Below, one piece after another: positions 5,437 through 28,565 of a DNA stretch of 55,473 bases. Origin of the DNA: an uncultured virus (IMG/VR IMGVR_UViG_3300026522_000616) (taxonomy: Duplodnaviria > Heunggongvirae > Uroviricota > Caudoviricetes); IMG/VR virus record IMGVR_UViG_3300026522_000616. One strand, given 5' to 3'. The number at the start of each line of letters is the position of its first letter. The first letter of the stretch is position 1. Both the position numbers and the translations under genes were made by a program. The notes beneath the pieces are model-generated. The model made no database searches. It was not told the origin of the DNA and was given only the letters and a program-made list of their open reading frames with translations.

Positions 5437-6435
5437 ATGCTTATTCTTGAAAGGAGAAGAAGAATGAATACAGTTGAAAAGTTAAAGAAAATCTACGATG
5501 AATTAGATAGTGTAGTTGTCAAAGAATGTCATTCAACTGATTATTCAATTAATGGGTGTAGGGTTTGCCCATATTACTCTCACAATGAATGCGACTTTGA
5601 GAAAACTGAAATAAATATTAATCACTTGATTTATGTCTCAGAGAAGCTAGAAGTACAGAGAAAAAAGAGAATAGCTAAAAAATATAAAAAAACCATCTAT
5701 GTAACAGAAGAGGATTGCAGAACGTTGCTTCATCATTCTCCGACAGCATATTTACATCCTGGAAGCGTAAAAAGTATTTGCGCGACATTTGATAACGGGT
5801 ATGAGGTCGTTATCGGTTTTACACCGACATTTGAGTTAGAAGATGATTTCACATTTAGTTTATTCGGTAAAAATGACGAATTCATCAAGACAGAATACTA
5901 TGAGCATTTTCAAGAGACATGGAGGGTTACTGACCCCAATACTTGTGATGAGTATGAATTAACTCTGATTAGAAGCGATAAGCCTAGGCTGTCAGGAGAA
6001 GCACATATTCGCCGACAAGAAAAAGTATCCAATAATGACAAAATGCCAGAGAAACACGAACAGGAGAATAAGCCAAGCAAAATCATTCACGATTTGACGA
6101 TAACAGTAGACGAAGAAACCCTTAAAGATTGGAGAAATCCAACAGGGTTTATGGATGGAGGATATAAGGCTGTGTGGGGAGAATTTGACAATTATCTCAC
6201 CGTTAGGGTAAAACCATCTATGACGTTGGAAGGTGATGGTTTCATCGAAGTTTGCTTGTATAAGGATGGTAAGGAAGTTGCATCAACGTATCCATACTTC
6301 TTGTTTGACCCGATACGCCTTGAATATAATAATGAAGAATATCATATTCAGCTAGAAAAAGAATATAAAGAAAAAAGACCAGAGTTGAGATACACGGAGG
6401 ATTTATTTTTGAAAGAAGATGAAAGCAATGGCTAA
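5437..6435 (+). CDS. hypothetical protein (true start probably 5464)
   Basis: Long ORF, Cys-rich N-terminus, two similar internal domains. Confidence 0.75.
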   Translation: MLILERRRRMNTVEKLKKIYDELDSVVVKECHSTDYSINGCRVCPYYSHNECDFEKTEININHLIYVSEKLEVQRKKRIAKKYKKTIYVTEEDCRTLLHHSPTAYLHPGSVKSICATFDNGYEVVIGFTPTFELEDDFTFSLFGKNDEFIKTEYYEHFQETWRVTDPNTCDEYELTLIRSDKPRLSGEAHIRRQEKVSNNDKMPEKHEQENKPSKIIHDLTITVDEETLKDWRNPTGFMDGGYKAVWGEFDNYLTVRVKPSMTLEGDGFIEVCLYKDGKEVASTYPYFLFDPIRLEYNNEEYHIQLEKEYKEKRPELRYTEDLFLKEDESNG

Positions 6436-9405: not shown

Positions 9406-9945
9406 ATGGGTAATGGAATTATGTATAAGATTAATGAAAAATATCCAAATTATAAAATATACGATAATGGAATTATCACAGATTTAAATGATAAACTATT
9501 AAAGGTATTTACTAGTGGTAAGGGATATTTATATGTCAATTTTTATGTAAATAAAAAGACAAAAATTGTTTTTATACATAGACTTGTTGCTTATATGTTT
9601 TGTAAAGGATATAAAGAAGGATTACAAGTAAATCATATCAATGGAATAAAAACTGATAATAGAGCTTGTAATTTGGAATGGGTTACTGCGAAAGAAAATA
9701 TGCAACATAGTGTTAGTACATTAAGAAATTTTATTGGCAGTAAAAATCCTATTGCAAAAAAGATTGATGTATATAATTATAAAACAGGAAACCTTGTAGC
9801 ACATTATGATTGTATAGCTACTATGATAAGAGATTTTTTATGTAAGAATTTAGGGGTTTGTTATCATAGTGCAGAACAAAGTGTATATAGAATTTTAAAA
9901 GGTGTACGAAAATCTTATTATGGATATACATTTAAATATGTATAA
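9406..9945 (+). CDS. free-standing HNH homing endonuclease
   Basis: IHRLVA...VNHINGIKTDNRACNLEWVT. Confidence 0.92.
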   Translation: MGNGIMYKINEKYPNYKIYDNGIITDLNDKLLKVFTSGKGYLYVNFYVNKKTKIVFIHRLVAYMFCKGYKEGLQVNHINGIKTDNRACNLEWVTAKENMQHSVSTLRNFIGSKNPIAKKIDVYNYKTGNLVAHYDCIATMIRDFLCKNLGVCYHSAEQSVYRILKGVRKSYYGYTFKYV

Positions 9946-10889: not shown

Positions 10890-10964
10890 GCTGACGTGGC
10901 GCAAAGGTAGCGCAATTCATTTGTAATGAATCGGTTGTAGGTTCAAGTCCTACCGTTAGCTCCA
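10890..10964 (+). tRNA. tRNA-Thr(TGT)
   Basis: Loop TTTGTAA, CCA. Confidence 0.95.
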
Positions 10965-10990
10965 TTTAAAATTTAAATAATTAAATATAT

Positions 10991-11032
10991 AAGACACTAT
11001 CAGCAAAGAATTATGGGTATAATGTGTCTTGT
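10991..11032 (+). ncRNA. CAGCAA-stem RNA motif copy 4 (minimal)
   Basis: AAGACAC-TAT-CAGCAAAG...TGTGTCTTGT. Confidence 0.6.
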
Positions 11033-11037
11033 AAAAG

Positions 11038-11180
11038 TTATTATTTTGGTTTAATATTTTATTCTTCAATGTGAGACGAGTGGCAAGGTACACCTCGCGC
11101 AAGGTGGTTTAGCGAGAGCTAACGCAAGTCCGAATCTTGCCATTGTTTAAAAAGGTAAAATATTTTATTAAGATAATAAT
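11038..11180 (+). ncRNA. tRNA-like RNA on an extended stem
   Basis: D-like, CACCT/AGGTG, TTAGC/GCTAA and GCAAG-TCCGAAT-CTTGC arms closed by CAATG/CATTG; no CCA. Confidence 0.55.
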
Positions 11181-11184
11181 ATAA

Positions 11185-11220
11185 ATAACCTCAGTTTGGC
11201 GATGACTGAGGTTATTTTAT
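11185..11220 (+). terminator. intrinsic terminator ending the tRNA operon
   Basis: AATAACCTCAGT/ACTGAGGTTATT. Confidence 0.85.
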
Positions 11221-11266
11221 AAAATAATTATTTGACAAATACAAAGAATTGTTGTATAATATATAT

Positions 11267-11525
11267 AGAAATCAAGAAGATAGAATTTTTTGTAGAAGAT
11301 TTATCGGTCCATGTATTTCTTGTTTAACAGAACACGTTATATTAAAAATGTGTCGATACGTAACAAGTGGTTTTCAGATATGTTTTTATAATGCATGACA
11401 AATTCTATAAACGAGAAATGATAAATCTTTATGCTAGATACGAAAGATTTTATTGTATTGGTTTTATTTACAAAAACTACATAATGAAAGAGACAAGGTT
11501 TGATGTAGTTCCTTGTCTCTTTTGT
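11267..11525 (+). ncRNA. putative ~255 nt structured sRNA
   Basis: TTGACA-17-TATAAT 11232-11260, long-range helices, terminator AAAGAGACAAGG/CCTTGTCTCTTT, no ORF. Confidence 0.55.
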
Positions 11526-11528
11526 TAT

Positions 11529-11573
11529 ATGTAATTATCATTTATGTAATTATCATTTATGTAATTATCATTT
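11529..11573. repeat. 15-bp tandem repeat x3 (ATGTAATTATCATTT)
   Basis: Three exact copies running into the -35 TTGACA of the next promoter. Confidence 0.9.
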
Positions 11574-11624
11574 GACATTTTAACCAATAGCATCTTATAA
11601 TAAAAATAAAGGAGTTGAAGTATA

Positions 11625-12125
11625 TTGGAAGAAATTCAGATAGGTCAATCACAAAAACCGATATTGAGATTTCCTGACGGTTCATTTATTTATCAATGCA
11701 GAGGAAAATTCGATGGGTTTATGTTTAAACTAAATAACTATGCAATAAAGGATATAGATTATTTTACTTGCTTGAAACAATTATCAGATAAATATGGAAT
11801 AGATAAAGTATATAATGATTTTATTTTAGTTTATAATATGGTTGGCATAAATATCAATAGTCAGCATTGGTTAGCTATTCGTAATATAGCAGAAACGTAC
11901 AATAAGAAAGATTTTTTAGTTGTAGCTAAATTATTTTGTATTCTTTATGTAACAATGCTTGCAGAACAGAATAACGCTCATGCTATTTTAGGTAAGCGTA
12001 TAAAAAGATTAGGTGTATATCAAATATTGAAACAAAATATGCCAATAATAAAAGCAGTTAATTTTTCTAAAGGAAAAAGTGCAAGATATGATTTAGAACC
12101 TTTGTGTGAAAAATATGGTTTCTAG
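11625..12125 (+). CDS. hypothetical protein
   Basis: AAGGAG RBS, TTG start. Confidence 0.75.
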   Translation: MEEIQIGQSQKPILRFPDGSFIYQCRGKFDGFMFKLNNYAIKDIDYFTCLKQLSDKYGIDKVYNDFILVYNMVGININSQHWLAIRNIAETYNKKDFLVVAKLFCILYVTMLAEQNNAHAILGKRIKRLGVYQILKQNMPIIKAVNFSKGKSARYDLEPLCEKYGF

Positions 12126-12159
12126 GTCTTGACAAATAGATGTGGGCTTGATATAATAG

Positions 12160-12270
12160 AAGATGAAAAGAAAAACTTCTCTCTAAAAGTATTTCTTTTC
12201 AAACTTCCTTTTTATTTGACTTATAATTTTATTTATGGTTAAAGATGAACTTCTTTAACCACTTTTTTTG
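12160..12270 (+). ncRNA. putative ~110 nt sRNA upstream of tnpB
   Basis: TTGACA-17-TATAAT 12129-12157, 5' hairpin, terminator TGGTTAAAGA/TCTTTAACCA plus T run. Confidence 0.5.
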
Positions 12271-12322
12271 TTTACAGCATTGCATATATATGATAAACTA
12301 AAAAGTAAGGTGGTGAAATATT

Positions 12323-13411
12323 TTGCATAAACTTTTTAAATTAAATTTGGATAATTATCAAAAACAACAAATTAAGAATATGCTTTTAGATAATTCGCAA
12401 TTATATCATGAAGCATATCTATGGAAACAAAGTCATAAAGAGCCTTTTCAAACGTCTGTAAGGTACTTAGATTTTGTTCCTGAACGATTGCATAAAGAAT
12501 GTGCCATAAGAACGATTAAACGAGCTACAAAGGCAGATAAAGAGGTTAAATACAGGTATCGTAATATCTATATCAATCCAAATAGGTTTACGAATAATCA
12601 GATTGAATTAAATAATTTAATTATTCCATTTGATATTGATACTAACAAAATAAATATTTTGTCTGCATGGATTATGTACAAAAATAAGGAATATTATTTA
12701 GACTTGGAGATTGGCAAATCAGGAAAACATCATATGATTGCTATAGATGTTGGGGTAGATAATTTGGGAGCTTGTGTGACAAGTTTCGGAGATTCGTTTT
12801 TAGTCGATGGTAAAAAATTAAAAGCATATGATTATTATTGTTTAAAGAAAATTAATTTTTTACAAGGAATTAATTCTGAATCCAAAAAGATTGATAAAAT
12901 AAAGCACAATCATTATCATTATTTGAGAACATATTGTGAAAAAGCATCAAATATTGTAAAACAATACTGTATTGATAACGGTATAGATTTTATTTTGATG
13001 GGTAAAATTCCAACAAAAAAATCATTGTCATATCATACATTTATGGGAATGGATTATAAAAGAGACAATATTACTGCATTTGGTATGTCTTTGTTTGTAA
13101 AAAACATTAAGCATATTTGCAAAGTAAATAAATGGGAGTATTCTTGTATTGCAGAAGATTATAGTTCACAATGCTCTTTTTATGATGATGAAAGTGTAAA
13201 GCAAAGAGATAAACACTTTGGTAGGCGCGTACATCGTGGATTATATCGAACAAAAGATAATAATTATGTAAATGCAGATATTAATGCTGCTTATAATTTT
13301 TTCCGAAAATATGTAGATAACATTGATAATAAGAAAAAGAAAATTATTCAATGGAAAAATTGCAAGCAAAATTTAAAATTGCATACACGTAGAGTAAGAG
13401 TTATTGATTAA
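12323..13411 (+). CDS. tnpB: TnpB-family RuvC nuclease, stand-alone
   Basis: IAIDVGVDNL, AEDYSSQCSFYD, GRRVHRGLYRT, NADINAAYN; no tnpA nearby. Confidence 0.85.
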   Translation: MHKLFKLNLDNYQKQQIKNMLLDNSQLYHEAYLWKQSHKEPFQTSVRYLDFVPERLHKECAIRTIKRATKADKEVKYRYRNIYINPNRFTNNQIELNNLIIPFDIDTNKINILSAWIMYKNKEYYLDLEIGKSGKHHMIAIDVGVDNLGACVTSFGDSFLVDGKKLKAYDYYCLKKINFLQGINSESKKIDKIKHNHYHYLRTYCEKASNIVKQYCIDNGIDFILMGKIPTKKSLSYHTFMGMDYKRDNITAFGMSLFVKNIKHICKVNKWEYSCIAEDYSSQCSFYDDESVKQRDKHFGRRVHRGLYRTKDNNYVNADINAAYNFFRKYVDNIDNKKKKIIQWKNCKQNLKLHTRRVRVID

Positions 13412-13462
13412 AAATACAAGAAAATGATTGACAAAACCGTTTAATCTATGTTATAATAGAGA

Positions 13463-13945
13463 AGTGGGTGAGAAACCCAGATAAGTGCCTGTATTCACTT
13501 AGGGAATTTATGCAAACGGTGAATATTAGTATGAAGGGAATAAACGAGAATAAGAAATCCCTAAAGAATTAAAGTTTTTATATTTTGATAATTTATAGAT
13601 AGTCTAAACACAAAAGACTATTCATCAATAAAAAGAGTTTCCCTATCTTTTTAGTTCTTGCCAAAGGACGGTATTTATAGATAGCGATATATAAATACGT
13701 TGATGAAACAGTAAGGATTGGCGTTTTTACTGTTAAACGATAATGTCAGAATACGTTTTGGATTATTATAGGATATAAAAACATTCTTTTAAACAGTTCT
13801 TGTTCCAATGTGTAAAAGAACTTTTCAAGGTGCTTGACGCAGTATGCGGGATACAAATAAAATAAAACATACAAAAGGTTCTTTTGTGGATAACGAATTA
13901 TCAAAGTACTTGTATAAGTATATAACTTTTATTTCTCCTTTCATA
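13463..13945 (+). ncRNA. large ornate ncRNA (core 13483-13835)
   Basis: Own promoter 13428-13457; eight or more helices including pseudoknots; no credible ORF. Confidence 0.65.
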
Positions 13946-14002
13946 AAAGTTTTGGTAATTGTTATCCATTTTTCTATATATATTGGAAAGAAGGTTTGTA
14001 AT

Positions 14003-14176
14003 ATGAATTGGTTGGTAATTTTAGTATTAATGTGGCTAATTATTTTTTGGTTAATTGTTGGCTTTGGATGGTATTTCTGCGGGTTTATGCAAATGGTAAT
14101 ATATGTATTGGCATATATGTTTATTACATTTGGAGTTTTCCTATTATCTTTACAAGGTGTTAATGATGAAAATTAA
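14003..14176 (+). CDS. small two-TM membrane protein
   Basis: AGAAGG RBS; two hydrophobic segments. Confidence 0.55.
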   Translation: MNWLVILVLMWLIIFWLIVGFGWYFCGFMQMVIYVLAYMFITFGVFLLSLQGVNDEN

Positions 14177-14382
14177 AGAAATGCACATTGTATTTGAAAA
14201 CTTTGAAATATTAAAAATTCCATATCAATATGTTGGTCAAATGAGATTAGACTATATTACAGATAGTATTATTTCTAATGGGGATATGGTTATTAGGATA
14301 AACAAAAATCATTGACAAATTAATTTATATATGATAAACTGTAAATAGTTGGATGGTTATTGTATGTAAGGAGAGGTAATCA

Positions 14383-14742
14383 ATGAAAAGCAGAGTTATT
14401 AATACGAAAAATTTTGAGTGGAATAAAGAAAATAAACAGTTCATTGGCTATACGAGTAAATTGAAACCGAGTCTTTTTTATGGCAATAAAGAAAGAGAAG
14501 GGTATATTTGGTTGCAGAGTCAATGGACAAATAAAATGTCTAAATGGATTCTTCAAAACGAAACAATGAAAGATAATCAGATTGAGAAATGGGAATTTGT
14601 TCCTGATAATAAATTTGTGGAAAAGTTTTCTAATTTAAAAGATTATACTCTTATTGTAAATTTTGATTCTCATTATAAATTCGGTAAAGCAGCAAAACAA
14701 CGTAATGATGAACTAAATAGAAAAAGAAAGATGAATAAGTAA
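14383..14742 (+). CDS. hypothetical protein
   Basis: Promoter plus AGGAGAGG RBS. Confidence 0.75.
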   Translation: MKSRVINTKNFEWNKENKQFIGYTSKLKPSLFYGNKEREGYIWLQSQWTNKMSKWILQNETMKDNQIEKWEFVPDNKFVEKFSNLKDYTLIVNFDSHYKFGKAAKQRNDELNRKRKMNK

Positions 14743-14815
14743 CATCTAATATTTTTTATGTATGCTTCTATTCTTTAATTAGATAACACATTGTAAAAAA
14801 GGCAGGTTGTATAAT

Positions 14816-15520
14816 ATGAATAAAAGGCGTTATTTGATTGCAGAAGGTCAATCTGAATATACATATGATGAACTTAGTAAAACTTCAAAAGAGCAAGCAG
14901 TCAATGAAGTAGCGGAAATTCTAAACGAAATGAATGCAGAAGATTTGGTTACTATAGATTTAAATGCTATTACTGTTGATTTGAAAAAAGCAGGTATTCC
15001 TGACGAGAATTTTGAAGTACATATGGGTGAAGATAATCCATTTGATTTTTCTGTTGATATTAAGGATTTTGTATTGGATAGTACAAATCCATTATTTATG
15101 AAAGCAGTTAATGAAGCAGGAATTGATTTAACAGAATTTATTTCTTTTGATAATGAGCGTACTCATAATTCTTTTGAAACAAAAGAACAATCAAAACATT
15201 TAGATGAAAGTAATGCATTAGATTGTTTTGAAAAAGATGGAGTTAAATTTAAGATTAGTGGATTAGTACAAGACTATAAAACCAATATTAAAGTATCTGA
15301 TGTTACAGAATATCAAGATGAAAAAATACATACATTCAATCTAAGAGAACTTGTTGAACAACTTTCTGAAGGGTTAGCTAGTGTATTGGATGAAATTGTT
15401 CTTCACTATGTTGAAAGTTCAGACCAAGAACTTATGGATATGGATTCTGAAGGATATGAACAAGCACAACAAGAAGTTAATGATTATAAATTTGATGTAA
15501 ATGGACATATTGTTCATTAA
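14816..15520 (+). CDS. acidic protein with MNKRRYLIA leader
   Basis: ORF followed by a terminator. Confidence 0.8.
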   Translation: MNKRRYLIAEGQSEYTYDELSKTSKEQAVNEVAEILNEMNAEDLVTIDLNAITVDLKKAGIPDENFEVHMGEDNPFDFSVDIKDFVLDSTNPLFMKAVNEAGIDLTEFISFDNERTHNSFETKEQSKHLDESNALDCFEKDGVKFKISGLVQDYKTNIKVSDVTEYQDEKIHTFNLRELVEQLSEGLASVLDEIVLHYVESSDQELMDMDSEGYEQAQQEVNDYKFDVNGHIVH

Positions 15521-22809: not shown

Positions 22810-25800
22810 GTGAATCACTTGCAAAAAGTAAGAAAACGTAATGGAAAAGTTGTTGACTACGATTCGCATAAGATATTTAATGCGATTAAGAAAGCTAACA
22901 ATGATTCCAAAGATAAGAGAATGAATAATTCGATTATTTGGGGGATGGTAAGTCAGATTGAAGAAAAATTTGAAGATGTAAAAGCACCTTCAGTAGAAAG
23001 TATTCAAGACGAAGTGGAAAATGTTCTCATGAAGTCAAATTGGGAACATACTGCTAAATCGTATATTATTTATCGTTCGGAACACGCAAAAATTCGTGAT
23101 ACACATGAAGAACTTATGAAAAAAATGATGGATATTACATTTCAATCTGGTGAAGAATCAGATTACAAACGTAGTAATGCTAATATTCAATCAGATGAAC
23201 CAATGGGTTCAATGTTAATTTATGGGACAACAGTAAGTAATTTCTTTAATGATAATTACATTATTCCGAAGAGATATATTGATGCTCATAGAGCAGGATA
23301 TATTCATATCCATGAATCTTATTGTGGATAAAAAAATAGGTGAACTGATAAAATATCAGGTGTACAATTTACGTATAGGAAATGTAGGAAATGACATTTA
23401 GAAATTGTGCTAACAGGGAATGACTTTATATAAGTAGAATCCTGTGCTAACATTTACATTTTTTGTAAATTAAGTTAATCGACTATCCATTTATGGAGTA
23501 CATATATGTTAAAAATATGTGGAAGTGCCTATCTTAGATGATATAGTCAATCTGCAATAGACAACTGTCTACTGTGAGAGGACAAGGATTTTTCAGAGCT
23601 AACATTCAACTGCCTCCAGGTGGATTTACAAAAGACATTTAAAGACGGTTTTAAAATTGGTAGCTCATATATTAGAGAACCGCAAAGTATTCGTTCTGCT
23701 GCAAGTTTAGCTTGCATCGTGTTGCAATCTTCGCAGAATAACATGTTTGGTGGACAATCAATTCAGGACTTTGATAGAGCTATGGCAGAAGGTGTAAGAC
23801 GTTCTTTTAAGAAAGAATTTGAGGAATGTGCTAAAAACCTTGCTATGGTTTCTGATGTATCAGAAGATACTGTAGACGAGATTTTGAAACAAAAACAGAA
23901 CGAATATCCAACGTATAAAAATGATAAAAACATTGATAAACTAACAGATGATAAAGAATTAAATAAGCTATTTAAAAATGCTTATAAGCTGGCTTGTAAG
24001 CGTGTAGAAGAAGAAACACATCAAGCTATGGAAAGCGTTATTTTCAATCTAAATTCGATGCATTGTTTACCATATTCTTCAACAATTTTTGTTTATGATA
24101 AACAAGAAGAAGAATTAAAAGTAATGCAAATTGGTAAACTACATGAGATTTATGAAAAAGGTCGTTATCAGGCTATTTCATTAAATCAAAATACAGGTGT
24201 AGCAGAATTAAAAGATATTACTGATATTGAAAGAAAAAATAATCATCGTAGATTGATTACAATTCATACAACATCAGGAGCATCAGTTACGACAACAGAC
24301 AATCATAAAGTAATGTATCTTAATAACGCAGGTAAAATTGCTGAAGATTATCCTGAAAGTGTACCAAATGTATTAATGCCAAGAAATTTTGTTTTTAATG
24401 TGAAAAATGATATTAGTTTAGATAAATTCCATTCACGTACAAAACAAAATTATACAGAAAATCATATTGTAGTAAATCCTTCTTTTGGTAAATTGGCAGG
24501 GTATTATGTTGCAGAAGGTTCTATTGTTGGTGATAGTCAATTATGCTTTACCACTTGTGATGAAACTAAAGAACAAGAATTGTTATCATTAATGAAAGAA
24601 TGCTATAATGAAAAAGTAACATATAATAAATATTCTATGCCTAATGGTAAACCAAAGGATATAAGATTTAATGTTGGTAAAGTTTGGTCGGACGCATTTA
24701 AATATTATTTCGGTAGAAATGCACATGAGAAAAAAATTCCAATGCAAATTATGTTTGGAACAAAAGAAGTTCAATCTGCATTTTTGGAAGGGTATTTTAA
24801 ATGTGATGGTAGTATAAAACCAACATATATTGGGGCTACAACTGTTTCAGAAACGTTACGTTCTCAAATTCAATTAATGATTTTGTCAATGAATGAAATG
24901 TCTCATATTCACAATACATATAACAGGAAAACGTCTTATGGAACATATAATGGATATGATATTAGTTTTAATTCTAATACTGCAAATCGTTTGAATTTGA
25001 AAGATTTAAATCAAAATAATGTACGAGCAGAATATATTTATTATGATTTTGATTTTTTGAAGAATTTATTAAGTCGTAATATTGATGGTAGGAAACCAAA
25101 ATTTAATCGTGTAAAAAAAGAAATTATTGACACAAAAGCAATTGATGATAATAAATTCATTCCTGCTTCACATATATATCCATTATTTATTGAAAAAGTA
25201 ACGGAAAGTAATAGTGAAGAAGAATATGTTTATGATATGTCTGTTGCAGACAATGAGACTTTCTTAACATCTAATTGTATTTTTGTTCATAATTCGAGAG
25301 CTGGCTCTCAAGTGCCATTTAGTTCCTTAAATTTTGGGTTAGATACGTCTGAAGAAGGACGTTTAGCTATGAAGCATTTACTGCTTGCACAAGAAGCAGG
25401 ATTAGGACATGGCGAGACGAGCATCTTCCCTAGATAAATGGGGCTTACTTTAATCAGTAAGAAACATATTGTGAAAACGGTAGAAGTTTTAATCGACTTC
25501 GTAAGAGAACCTAAATCCTAAATGGATAGTGGTAATACCGTGTTAAGACTTATTAATGCTAAAATAAAATATAATGGAGGTGAGAAAATGAATAAAATAT
25601 TTAAAACGAATACAGGATTAGAATATAAAATTAATTATGATTATATAAAAAATGGTAATCATTATTATGAAATTGAATTTCTAAGAACACATAGCAAACG
25701 AACTGTTTTGAAGCAAGCATTGAATCAAGGTTGTATTAAAGATTTATTCTATCCAACATTATATGGGATTGGATATATGGGAAATGCAACATCAAAAATG

Positions 25801-28565
25801 AATAAACGCGCTTGCACATTATGGAGAAATATGTTAAGTAGATGTTATAATTCTCATAACAAAAAAGACTTTTCTTCATATGGTGGATTAGGTGTTACTG
25901 TTTGTAATAGATGGCATTGTTTTGAATATTTTTTAGAAGATTTATCCAAAATTGATGGATATAATGAAAAAGAATTCAATGATGGAATTTTATGTTTGGA
26001 TAAAGACATAAAGCAAAAAGGATTATTACCATCACAAAAAGTTTATTCTTTAGATACTTGTATGTTTATATCTAATGAAATAAATATTAAATATAGAAAC
26101 ACAGAACAATATTCAAAACATTTTATTGCTATTTCACCAGATAATGATTTAATGATAATTCATGGAATTGTACATTTTTGTAAAATATATAATTTCAGTC
26201 CAGGTAGTGTTAAATTGCGATTGGATAAAAAGCTGTTTAAACCTTATCATGGTTGGAATTTCTTTAGCATTAATAATTAAAATGTAACGACTATCCGTGA
26301 GAACGGAGTACATATTATTAAAATATGGAAGTGCAATATACATCATAATGATGTAAAGAGATAGTCTAATCCGCATTTCTTTAAGAAATGGTTAAAATAT
26401 TACGAAAGTAACGGTATAAATGATAACTATATTTAGACTTAAAAAGGGTATTAGTTATGACCCTGGTGACCCGAATTACGATTTATTTAAATTAGCTATG
26501 CGTGTAAGTGCAAAGCGTCTGTTCCCTAAACAACATTGGGGCTTACAGTAATGTAAGAAACATATTGTGAAAACGGTAGAAGTTTTAAGCAACTTCGTAA
26601 GAGAACCTAAATCTATTTTTAATAGATAGTGGCAATACCGTGCTAAAATTTATTATAAATAATAAATAAAGTGTAACGACTATAGGAGAAATCCTAGTAC
26701 GCATAAAATTATGCGGAAGCGCAATATACATCAATATGATGTAAAGAGATAGTCTGCGAATTATAGAAATATAATTTATTTAAGCGAATTTTGAAAATCA
26801 AGACGCACCTTACAATATGCAATATTATAATCCAAATGATTATAGAACTGAGATTGCAACCATAAACAAACCTGTGGCTTTATACAGAAATGTATATCGA
26901 AGAACTTTTCTAAACAAGGAAACCTTAAATTTTTAAGGTAATCTAGTGCTAAATTTATTTATAAATGGTGAAATATGCAAGAACTATGGAAAGAAATTAA
27001 AGGTTATAATGGAAGATATTTAATTAGTAATTTTGGACAAGTTAAAAATAAAGATGGAAGATTATTAATCGGAGACAAAAATAATTGTGGATATAGACGT
27101 GTTTGTTTATCTAATCCACATAAAAGATTTTTTATACATAGATTAGTTGCATATTATTTTTGTAATCCACCAATAAATTATAGTACACTTGTTGTTAATC
27201 ATATTGATGGAAATAAATTAAATTGTAGATATGACAATTTAGAATGGTGTACTCGTTCTGAAAATGATAAACATGCATTTAAGAATGGTCTTAGAAAAGT
27301 ACATAAAAATCATTATAAAACAACATGGTGTCCAATAATTATATATTCTGATAAAGATAGAAATAATGTTATCAGAGAGTTTGATGAAAGAAAACAATTT
27401 GCAGATTATTATGATAAATCATATTTATCTGTAGATGGAATCATAAAACGTGGATATTTTATTTACAAAAATAAAAAATTTTATGTTTCTACATATAGAA
27501 AAACAATTAAACACATTTATTAATAATAAAAGCTAAACGACTATCTACGGAAGTAGAGTACACTTTTTGAGTTAGTGGAAAAGAAAAGATGCCTATAATT
27601 ATAGGTATGTGATATAGTCTGAACCTATAGTGATATAGAAAATGCTACGCTGGGGCTGTAGAACCAAAACTCAAATGAATTTGAATGGCGAACCAATTAC
27701 TTCATCAAGAGGTAATTTTGCATTCGATACCATTAATCTTCCTATGTTGGCATTGGATGCAAACCATGATATTAAAAAGTTCTATAAACTTTTGGATAAA
27801 TACATGAAACTTTGCAAAGAAAATCTTCTTTGGAGATTTGAACGCATTGGTCATCGTCATGTATATAATTTCCCATTCTTGATGGGACAACATCTTTGGT
27901 ATACAAGTGAACAATTGAAATGGACAGATGAAATTGCTCCTGTATTAAAACAAGCATCTATTTCAATTGGTTTCTGTGGATTGGCAGAAGCACTTGTAGC
28001 ATTGATTGGTTCACATCATGGAGAAACAGAAGAAGCGCGTAAGTTAGGATATGAAATTATTAAACATATGCGTGAAATGACAGATAAGTACGCGAAAGAA
28101 ACGCATTTAAACTTTAGTTTATTTGCGACACCGGCAGAATCAACTGCTGGTGCGTTCCTTCGCGATACAAGAAAGAAATATGGAGTTATTAAAGGTGTAA
28201 CGGATAGAGAATATTTTACGAACAGTATGCATATTCCAGTTTACTATCCTATTTCAGCTGCAAAGAAAATTGAGATTGAAGCTCCATATCATGAGTTGTG
28301 TAATGCGGGTGTAATTAGCTATTTGGAAATGGATGGAGACCCATTAAAAAATCTTGATGCTTTTGAAACTGTTATTAGATATATGCACGATAAGAATATG
28401 AATTACTTTGCAGTCAACCACCCCGTAGACAGATGTCCTTCATGTGGTAATACATTAGTTATTGATGGAGACACTTGCCCAATTTGCGGATATAAAGAAA
28501 TTCGTGAAGATACAGATATTCACGTAAATATTCGCGATATTGGTTGTGGTTGTACAGATAAGTAA
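22810..28565 (+). CDS. nrdD: anaerobic (class III) ribonucleotide reductase large part; exons 22810-23313, 23581-25431, 26423-26527, 26787-26863, 27653-28565
   Basis: ATP cone; spliced joins HIH|DKDF, IFP|ITIF, RLFP|NF, IAT(AT|G)GCRT restore NrdD motifs; CxxC pairs at C-terminus. Confidence 0.92.
23314..23580 (+). mobile_element. group I intron 1 (no ORF)
   Basis: Exon ends in U, intron ends in G; IGS GTGGAT; GACTA and ATATAGTC (P7) elements. Confidence 0.88.
24064..25293 (+). mobile_element. intein with LAGLIDADG endonuclease (410 aa)
   Basis: SMH|CLPY...FVHN|SRAG; LAGYYVAEG and FLEGYFKCDG blocks. Confidence 0.93.
25432..26422 (+). mobile_element. group I intron 2 with endonuclease ORF
   Basis: TTCCCT|...TG|ATA; AACGACTA and AGATAGTCT core. 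Confidence 0.88.
25588..26280 (+). CDS. intron-encoded putative homing endonuclease
   Basis: GGAGG RBS; WRNMLSRC..YGGLGVTVCNRW..LDKD. Confidence 0.75.
   Translation: MNKIFKTNTGLEYKINYDYIKNGNHYYEIEFLRTHSKRTVLKQALNQGCIKDLFYPTLYGIGYMGNATSKMNKRACTLWRNMLSRCYNSHNKKDFSSYGGLGVTVCNRWHCFEYFLEDLSKIDGYNEKEFNDGILCLDKDIKQKGLLPSQKVYSLDTCMFISNEINIKYRNTEQYSKHFIAISPDNDLMIIHGIVHFCKIYNFSPGSVKLRLDKKLFKPYHGWNFFSINN
26528..26786 (+). mobile_element. group I intron 3 (no ORF; sister of intron 2)
   Basis: TTCCCT|...CG|AAT; core nearly identical to intron 2. Confidence 0.88.
26864..27652 (+). mobile_element. group I intron 4 with HNH ORF
   Basis: Splits the ATG of MGCRT; AACGACTA and ATATAGTCT. Confidence 0.88.
26975..27523 (+). 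CDS. NUMOD4-HNH homing endonuclease
   Basis: WKEIKGYNGRYLISNFG; IHRLVA; VNHIDGNKLN. Confidence 0.92.
   Translation: MQELWKEIKGYNGRYLISNFGQVKNKDGRLLIGDKNNCGYRRVCLSNPHKRFFIHRLVAYYFCNPPINYSTLVVNHIDGNKLNCRYDNLEWCTRSENDKHAFKNGLRKVHKNHYKTTWCPIIIYSDKDRNNVIREFDERKQFADYYDKSYLSVDGIIKRGYFIYKNKKFYVSTYRKTIKHIY

Follow-up and report, generated by a model that had tools for sequence, protein, structure and literature searches.

A compact TnpB gene and an adjacent large structured RNA, possibly its guide RNA, in an uncultured phage of the cattle gut

A tnpB gene and the RNA genes lying on either side of it are described here from the genome of an uncultured tailed phage (Caudoviricetes; IMG/VR record IMGVR_UViG_3300026522_000616; 281,186 bp, CheckV completeness 98%, GC content ~28%). 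The part of this record that was analysed, a stretch of 55,473 nucleotides, is hereafter called the window. In it, a DUF7004 gene is followed by a short predicted RNA with a promoter and a terminator (sRNA-B, for small RNA), by tnpB (12323-13411, plus strand), by a large RNA with a promoter of its own (RNA-C), and then by genes for a small membrane protein (start 14003) and for a 119-aa protein. The same order, from DUF7004 through the promoter with its short terminated RNA, tnpB, and the promoter with its large RNA to the small membrane protein and the 119-aa protein, is found in a related phage contig, L003. TnpB and RNA-C are both real, and as a pair they are unusual.

The tnpB gene begins with a TTG codon and encodes a protein of 362 aa with the RuvC residues D142, E278 and D319, a short N-terminal WED/REC half and no CxxC zinc finger. 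The Pfam family OrfB_IS605 (PF01385) is recognized at 36.1 bits (cut-off 30.5), and the TNB domain (PF07282) stays below its cut-off (15.2 vs 26.3 bits). The catalytic triad (D142 in AIDVG, E278 in AEDYSS, D319 in NADINAA) is invariant in all 64 sequences of an alignment that includes the three members of the subfamily of this protein, and the three columns are likewise invariant in an alignment of nine sequences. The compact TnpB with retained D, E and D residues reported in the initial annotation is therefore confirmed. The C-terminal zinc-finger region contains one cysteine only; since the cysteines are absent from the nearest aligned relatives as well, their loss is a trait of the clade and not a sign of decay.

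A word-indexed search of 5.8 billion proteins gave two close relatives, P0002 (55% identical, 363 aa) and P0003 (35% identical, 353 aa). The other matches were ordinary TnpBs of 399-435 aa, similar mainly over the C-terminal half; the N-terminal half of the phage protein is ~60 residues shorter than that of its nearest relatives. A profile of the subfamily matched 2,483 proteins at E<=0.001 among 1.84 billion cluster representatives, only nine of them at E<=1e-30. Judging from these comparisons, the phage TnpB is a member of a small, divergent subfamily inside a large clade. The AlphaFold2 model of the protein has a mean predicted local distance difference test score (pLDDT) of 92, and Foldseek ranks ribonucleoprotein structures of TnpB and Cas12f highest among PDB entries (8iaz, 8j12, 8dzj, 8h1j and others; probability 1.0), with TM scores that are low (0.27-0.41) because of domain placement; a profile search against PDB sequences gave TnpB and Cas12f chains with E values of about 1e-18 to 1e-13. 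Because its triad is intact, the protein looks like an active nuclease, not like a catalytically dead regulator of the TldR type. TnpB genes in phages are already known: a tblastn search of GenBank phages with the protein gave distant homologues (identity up to 30%) in 31 records, including Lak phages, Bacillus phage G, and Staphylococcus and Nodularia phages. In the same set of phages there was no DNA match and no relative of DUF7004.

The gene has the features of a resident of the phage lineage. It is present as a single copy in the 281-kb genome, in which no serine recombinase was matched. No terminal repeats recur across the flanks or in both phages, and the repeat searches returned short AT-rich pairs at chance level, in agreement with the absence of recognizable insertion sequence (IS) ends noted initially. 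The accompanying statement that there is no tnpA holds for the neighbourhood, but not for the whole genome, which contains one Y1 tnpA, ~210 kb from tnpB and the only one found. Between the window and L003, TnpB is 55% identical at the amino acid level, with a ratio of nonsynonymous to synonymous divergence (dN/dS) of 0.20 (0.32 for the N-terminal and 0.14 for the C-terminal part) and a dS of 1.7. The corresponding values are 82% identity, dN/dS 0.14 and dS 0.89 for DUF7004, and 83% identity, dN/dS 0.06 and dS 1.8 for the 119-aa protein; 30 of 57 residues are identical in the small membrane protein. The dS of tnpB thus falls within the range of the neighbouring genes (0.9-1.8). Taken together, the shared position, the dN/dS and a dS like that of the neighbours indicate that tnpB was inherited in place under selection, and is neither a recent insertion nor a decaying relic. 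The initial description of a domesticated-like TnpB fits a single-copy gene that lacks an adjacent transposase, is syntenic in L003, evolves under purifying selection and has kept its triad.

The DNA identity to L003 is 95-98% at 11300-11700, ~50% at 12100-12700, 72-81% in the RuvC half of tnpB and 43-67% in RNA-C. A discrete divergent island around tnpB was considered and rejected, because the identity shifts gradually and tnpB resembles a neighbouring gene in its dS; for the same reasons, the joint divergence of tnpB and RNA-C is no argument that the two are linked. The nearest bacterial relatives examined are mobile. In one bacterial genome, a 1,910-bp element with a 402-aa tnpB is present in five copies that are 98% identical; its right end lies ~60 nt past the stop codon, and its left half resembles, by eye only, a decayed serine-recombinase gene.

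The distant Y1 tnpA (G000:C1 ~21.9-24.0 kb, corresponding to L026 2387-4445, minus strand) is IS200-like and encodes 158 aa (Pfam E value 7e-36). It shares sequence with the beginning of an open reading frame (ORF) of 543 aa, for which neither a Pfam match nor BLASTP similarity to the phage TnpB was found, and by eye the stretch is GC-richer than the phage. The two ORFs may represent a second, different mobile element.

The promoter of RNA-C (13428-13457, plus strand) is of the form TTGACA-18-TATAAT with an extended -10 TG, matching the consensus at 12 of 12 positions, and its -35 box begins 17 nt past the tnpB stop codon. The counterpart in L003 (5104-5132) also scores 12/12. It should be noted that 12/12 promoters of the sigma-70 type (TTGACA/TATAAT) are frequent in this region, occurring at 11232, 11572, 12129 and 13428, so that a strong promoter is not special to the tnpB locus.

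The folded body of RNA-C (13464-13834, plus strand) was delimited from fold prediction, the alignment with L003 and contigs from RNA libraries. It starts with a 5' hairpin (13465-13479), followed by a stem (13492-13498/13519-13525) that in L003 encloses ~90 extra nucleotides, a conserved hairpin (~13535-13562), long-range helices (~13563-13593 with 13760-13790) surrounding several further hairpins, and a terminal hairpin (13795-13822); a closing helix of five pairs (13528-13532/13830-13834) ends the body. The 3' tail (13835-13898) contains the block TTGACGC-N5-GCGGGATA, conserved in L003, and also reads as a promoter-like site (13834-13863), again in both phages. As a single sequence, RNA-C folds with a z-score of -3.9, and none of 100 shuffled sequences folded as well; for the L003 version the z-score is -2.3, with 5 of 100 shuffles as good.

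The 3' three-quarters of RNA-C can be aligned with L003, giving a consensus structure whose 11 helices comprise 67 pairs, each of them formed in both sequences. Ten pairs are changed on both sides, compared with 0-2 when the partners are slid by one to three columns, and 2 of 500 shuffles equalled this figure; these numbers are inflated, since the consensus itself comes from the two sequences on which it was assessed. The closing helix stays paired though four of the five bases of its 3' side differ in L003, and the 5' hairpin covaries (GTGGGT/ACCCAG in the window vs GAGTTG/CAACTT in L003). No Rfam family, ROOL and GOLLD included, credibly matches RNA-C, either at gathering thresholds or at E values up to 10 over 11000-14500 and up to 1 in L003.

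The expression of the locus was assessed using contigs from four cattle-gut metatranscriptome runs belonging to three studies, compared with positions 10900-14900 of the window. Contigs of RNA-C were present in all four runs, at depths roughly 5-30 times those of the tnpB contigs: 61.5 against 3-7.8 in run X1, 100.8 against 3.5-4.6 in run X11, 24.7 against 2.3-3.8 in run X13, and 34.1 in run X14, where tnpB was without real cover. Such a ~5- to 30-fold step between adjacent stretches cannot be explained by carried-over DNA. One contig of 482 nt spans 13469-13898 with adapter letters on both ends, and other adapter-bearing contigs end after 13869 and at ~13850. RNA-C is therefore expressed, abundant and discrete, with a size of ~400 nt; contig depths and contig ends are poor measures of RNA levels and RNA ends, and its exact ends are provisional. 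The large RNA with its own promoter 17 nt after the stop, as first annotated, is thus borne out by the 12/12 promoter, the abundant discrete contigs and the conserved fold. The end coordinate then given, 13945, is farther downstream than the 3' ends that the adapter-bearing contigs suggest (~13850, 13869, 13898).

Three peculiarities of this stretch may be recorded. Two runs of one study gave contigs with an 8-nt tandem duplication, GCAGTATG, at 13838 in the RNA-C tail, inside the spacer of the promoter-like site, together with the substitution C>T at 13833; over the remainder of RNA-C there is no difference from the window. In two runs of different studies, contigs match RNA-C from 13577 onward and are preceded there by 146 and at least 255 letters of unlike sequence; this 13576/13577 junction may reflect the presence of part of RNA-C in other sequence contexts, or assembly chimeras. 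Finally, the spacer preceding the small membrane-protein gene is divergent except for a 15-nt block, TTTCTCCTTTCATAA (window 13925-13942, L003 ~5680-5695), which is invariant between the two phages and resembles an anti-Shine-Dalgarno sequence.

The reading that we tentatively put forward, with a confidence not far short of even, is that RNA-C is the guide RNA of TnpB, and that tnpB and RNA-C form one resident RNA-guided nuclease module. The functional link between them is a good hypothesis, not a result. Nucleases of the TnpB family require a guide RNA, and by this rule a TnpB that looks active and is under selection should have one. In the seven bacterial relatives examined, the presumed scaffold starts within the ORF and ends 54-91 nt downstream of the stop codon. 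At the phage locus, a comparison of two sequences, the window and L003, covering the final 180 nt of the ORF together with the spacer, revealed no conserved structure (20 predicted pairs, one of them compensatory, -8.75 kcal/mol), and Rfam gave no match over the 3' end of tnpB. The initial annotation had likewise seen no canonical 3' omega-RNA, and none could be detected here. Instead, RNA-C lies immediately 3' of tnpB on the same strand in both phages, as guide RNAs of the TnpB family do. Its layout, a closed body and a free 3' segment, also corresponds to that of guide RNAs, in which the guide follows the closed scaffold as a free 3' tail, and one adapter-bearing contig ends ~16 nt into this tail. 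A faint hint in the same direction comes from the contig of one run, which over 13469-13898 differs from the window only by two substitutions and an 8-nt insertion, all between 13833 and 13854.

If this reading is correct, TnpB would be an active RuvC nuclease whose guide-RNA scaffold has become uncoupled from the end of the ORF, as a separate RNA of ~370 nt with a strong promoter of its own. The guide would be the 3' tail after the closing helix, from ~13835, and the module would cut DNA carrying a matching sequence beside a target-adjacent motif. The likeliest target would be a co-infecting related phage without the module, in a context of homing or competition; a target in the host appears less likely.

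Several observations weigh against this interpretation. The arrangement is known from two loci only, the window and L003, on which the claim of linkage rests. Searches with nhmmer in both directions found no similarity of RNA-C to the omega-RNA regions of the seven bacterial relatives or to 17 bacterial tnpB loci. RNA-C has no Rfam match, as said, and at ~370 nt is larger than the scaffolds inferred for the relatives. It lies in a neighbourhood of RNA genes, with 15 tRNA genes and a second abundant RNA (RNA-A, described below), where an independent RNA gene would be no surprise. The tail, which would contain the guide, is largely conserved between the phages and promoter-like in both; the 3' ends of the contigs vary between runs, and contigs do not rigorously define the ends or levels of an RNA. 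As for targets within the phage, neither sRNA-B nor RNA-C has a match of >=16 nt elsewhere in the 281-kb genome, and four candidate guide segments have none there with up to 3-4 mismatches. In a sample of 401 genomes from one bacterial phylum, the tail pattern gave five one-mismatch matches vs two for the control. The one of these matches that was inspected, which agrees with the L003 tail at 19 of 20 positions, was rejected as due to chance; it lies inside a 432-aa ORF resembling, by eye, a nucleoside phosphorylase. Therefore, the non-canonical RNA partner imagined at the outset is plausible for RNA-C in view of its position, strand and abundance and of the lack of a detectable canonical omega-RNA, but the link rests on two loci, no guide or target was found in these searches, and RNA-C is unlike the omega-RNAs of the relatives.

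A first alternative is that RNA-C is an independent large structured phage RNA, similar in kind to ROOL and GOLLD, belonging to the tRNA and non-coding region and adjoining tnpB by chance, in which case TnpB would use another RNA or have another role. We regard this as a serious possibility, to be given perhaps a third of our confidence. An independent gene is what one would expect from the 12/12 promoter belonging to RNA-C itself, from a contig depth roughly 5-30 times that of tnpB, from the ornate, closed, multi-helix fold, and from the absence of similarity to the omega-RNA regions of the relatives. The nearby 15 tRNA genes and abundant RNA-A, the latter ~98% identical in L003, point the same way, and the contigs with unlike sequence before 13577 hint at other contexts for RNA-C. 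On the other hand, such an origin would leave a selected, catalytically intact TnpB without a guide RNA, as no other conserved structure adjoins the gene. Moreover, RNA-C has no match to the Rfam models, those of ROOL and GOLLD included, occurs once in the phage genome, and directly follows tnpB in both of its known copies; pattern scans of viral contigs, from which records close to the phage were possibly excluded, found no copy, and hence none without tnpB.

A second alternative, which we consider unlikely, is a shortened omega-RNA of the canonical kind. Its scaffold would extend from the 3' end of tnpB through the promoter to the hairpin at 13465-13479, with the guide starting from ~13486; an RNA-C gene would already have been in place when the element inserted just upstream of it, and the outward promoter of the element would drive RNA-C. 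The hairpin does covary with L003, lies 54-68 nt past the stop, where the scaffolds of the relatives end (54-91 nt), and is followed by AGATAA, a block common to both phages, beyond which the sequence is more variable. However, no conserved structure is present upstream of the hairpin, and nhmmer profiles of the omega-RNA regions of the relatives match the phage locus only in the coding part, at 13219-13308. A stabilizing hairpin would in any case be expected at the position of this one, since RNA-C is predicted to begin there, and the 20 nt at 13487-13506 have no match elsewhere in the genome with up to four mismatches.

Finally, that RNA-C might act in cis on the downstream operon of the small membrane protein, as a long leader or a riboregulator, tnpB being unrelated to it, appears unlikely as well: a single contig of one run does extend from 13488 to 14900, the tail holds a promoter-like site, the conserved TTTCTCCTTTCATAA block precedes the membrane-protein gene, and the run with the 8-nt insertion in the tail site shows a downstream depth of ~1-2 against 100 for RNA-C, but in three of the four runs an adapter-bearing contig ends at ~13850-13898, short of the next gene, Rfam gives no match to a riboswitch or a leader, and the body of RNA-C is closed by its own helices.

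Upstream of tnpB, the promoter of sRNA-B (P1, 12129-12157, plus strand) begins 4 nt past the stop codon of DUF7004 and reads TTGACA-17-TATAAT with an extended -10 TG (12/12); its counterpart in L003 is TTGACA-17-TACAAT (11/12). The predicted RNA of ~107 nt (12164-12270, plus strand) comprises a 5' hairpin (12164-12201) and a terminator hairpin (12236-12261) followed by a T run, and its fold has a z-score of -5.2; like RNA-C, it gave no credible match to an Rfam family. L003 keeps this layout, with its 11/12 promoter and a terminator with T8, while the sequence is ~50-55% identical, with two common blocks recognizable by eye, AGATGAAAAG and AAAG-TATTTCT. A weaker promoter-like site, P2 (12271-12299, plus strand; TTTACA-17-TAAACT with TG, 9/12), precedes tnpB, and its counterpart in L003 is TTGAAA-17-TATAAT with TG (11/12). 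Contigs from the RNA libraries leave 12147-12196 uncovered, and those of two studies stop at 12146, which is uninformative because short RNAs would not assemble. The small upstream RNA of ~110 nt proposed in the initial annotation is thus a prediction whose promoter/terminator layout recurs in L003.

Its proposed role as a partner of TnpB found no support, as nothing ties sRNA-B to the protein. A pairing of sRNA-B with RNA-C, in the manner of a CRISPR RNA (crRNA) with a trans-activating crRNA (tracrRNA), was rejected, because 22 of 40 and 18 of 40 mononucleotide shuffles did at least as well as the best predicted duplexes (-33.3 and -37.0 kcal/mol). Terminators are present at the left ends of IS200-type elements. 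In the reading we prefer, by analogy with these, the terminator of sRNA-B would insulate tnpB from the strong upstream phage promoter, and sRNA-B would be a by-product of that promoter running into the terminator, not a partner of the nuclease.

Further loci were sought in viral contigs with protein-based scans for the TnpB subfamily, with scans using two flanking proteins and with RNA-C patterns; none was found, with the reservation, already made for the last of these, that records close to the phage were possibly excluded. A metagenome scan for the subfamily gave, among the matches listed, the phage itself, L003 and one false match (L004/L005), rejected as a tnpB locus because it is a bacterial gene resembling by eye a tRNA-modification gene of the TilS type. 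In full-text literature searches, judged by title and abstract, no phage TnpB with a separately promoted large RNA partner was described.

The locus may be compared with several known systems. With the canonical TnpB-omega-RNA systems of IS200/IS605 and IS607 elements (e.g. ISDra2 TnpB, 8EXA/8H1J, and ISFba1 TnpB, 8IAZ) it shares the protein family, the fold, the intact triad and a structured RNA located 3' on the same strand. Unlike those elements, the phage tnpB is single-copy, with no adjacent transposase and no recognizable ends, and its product has the shortened N-terminal half described above. Unlike a canonical omega-RNA, no RNA structure was detected over the end of the ORF, and RNA-C has its own promoter, measures ~370-430 nt and cannot be aligned to the RNAs of the relatives.

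TldRs, described as phage- or prophage-encoded domesticated TnpB-like repressors with a guide RNA (gRNA) encoded downstream (10.1101/2023.11.30.569447), are similar in being TnpB derivatives fixed in a phage context without a transposase. They are defined there by at least two mutated RuvC catalytic residues, often with a truncated C-terminus, and their gRNA is given as a scaffold of ~97 nt plus a 16-nt guide (10.1101/2023.11.30.569447). In contrast, the triad of the phage TnpB is intact, so that it falls outside this definition, and RNA-C is several times larger than a TldR gRNA.

The Foldseek match to AsCas12f recalls the small TnpB-like nucleases of type V CRISPR systems, and RNA-C, as a partner, would similarly have its own promoter. 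However, the phage locus has no CRISPR array, repeats or adaptation genes, repeat searches giving chance-level pairs only, and a two-RNA design of the tracrRNA/crRNA type is unsupported, as the duplex of sRNA-B and RNA-C is no better than shuffles. ROOL and GOLLD are large ornate RNAs of phages and prophages. RNA-C is like them as a large, structured and abundant phage RNA near tRNA genes and from the cattle gut, but differs from them in its smaller size, its lack of a match to any Rfam model and the position of both copies directly behind tnpB.

The free-standing homing endonuclease genes of large phages offer a further parallel, since tnpB is likewise a nuclease gene between conserved phage genes, with HNH endonuclease genes in the same window; unlike in those enzymes, the specificity of the phage TnpB would come from an RNA. 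Non-restorative homing of transposons among co-infecting phages has been discussed as a possibility (PMC13565253). An IStron differs in that no group I intron was matched at the locus and that the upstream RNA is only ~107 nt long.

If RNA-C is the guide RNA, the phage would possess a natural TnpB with an independently transcribed RNA much larger than known scaffolds. This would bear on the origin of independently expressed tracrRNA and crRNA from transposon omega-RNAs and on the use of RNA-guided nucleases as weapons of homing or competition between lytic phages, and would add to the editing toolbox a 362-aa nuclease with a separable RNA. A broader proposition, which we hold only tentatively and with decidedly less than even confidence, is that the compact TnpBs without zinc finger of cattle-gut jumbo phages work with an uncoupled, ornate guide scaffold of ~370 nt, expressed from a consensus phage promoter far above the mRNA of the nuclease; they would be free-standing RNA-guided endonucleases of homing or competition, and would represent a step between the omega-RNAs of transposons and the separate RNAs of type V CRISPR systems. 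If RNA-C is instead independent, rumen jumbo phages would have in it a new RNA that is abundant and structured, found beside RNA-A, and one would still have to ask by what a phage TnpB that is conserved and catalytically intact is guided.

The remaining features concern the surroundings of the locus. The 15 tRNA genes of the window lie between 3273 and 10964, and tRNAs were the only features to reach Rfam gathering scores over the whole window. RNA-A, the second candidate non-coding RNA, is ~260 nt long and occupies, with its promoter, 11232-11526 (RNA ~11267-11526). It has a 12/12 promoter (11232-11260) and a terminator consisting of a strong hairpin and a T run (11487-11526), and no credible Rfam match was found for it in the search over 11000-14500 at E values up to 10. 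Two ORFs of 49 and 55 aa called within it may be spurious. RNA-A is ~95-98% identical in L003, far above the surrounding sequence, and its contigs are the deepest in the RNA libraries (117-470).

Two HNH endonuclease genes of the window lie in contexts of some interest. One of them is intact in the window (9406-9945), while in L003 its ORF is split in two by an insertion of ~116 bp (L003 526-641, corresponding to window 9512/9513), visibly GC-richer and containing hairpins. This insertion has no Rfam match; it may represent a small intron or else some kind of miniature mobile element. The other (25522-26280) lies between two parts (ORFs 23620-25437 and 27642-28565) of a gene for an NrdD-like anaerobic ribonucleotide reductase that is split into at least two ORFs. 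No group I or group II intron reached the Rfam gathering threshold in the window; the arrangement suggests an intron or an intein with a homing endonuclease.

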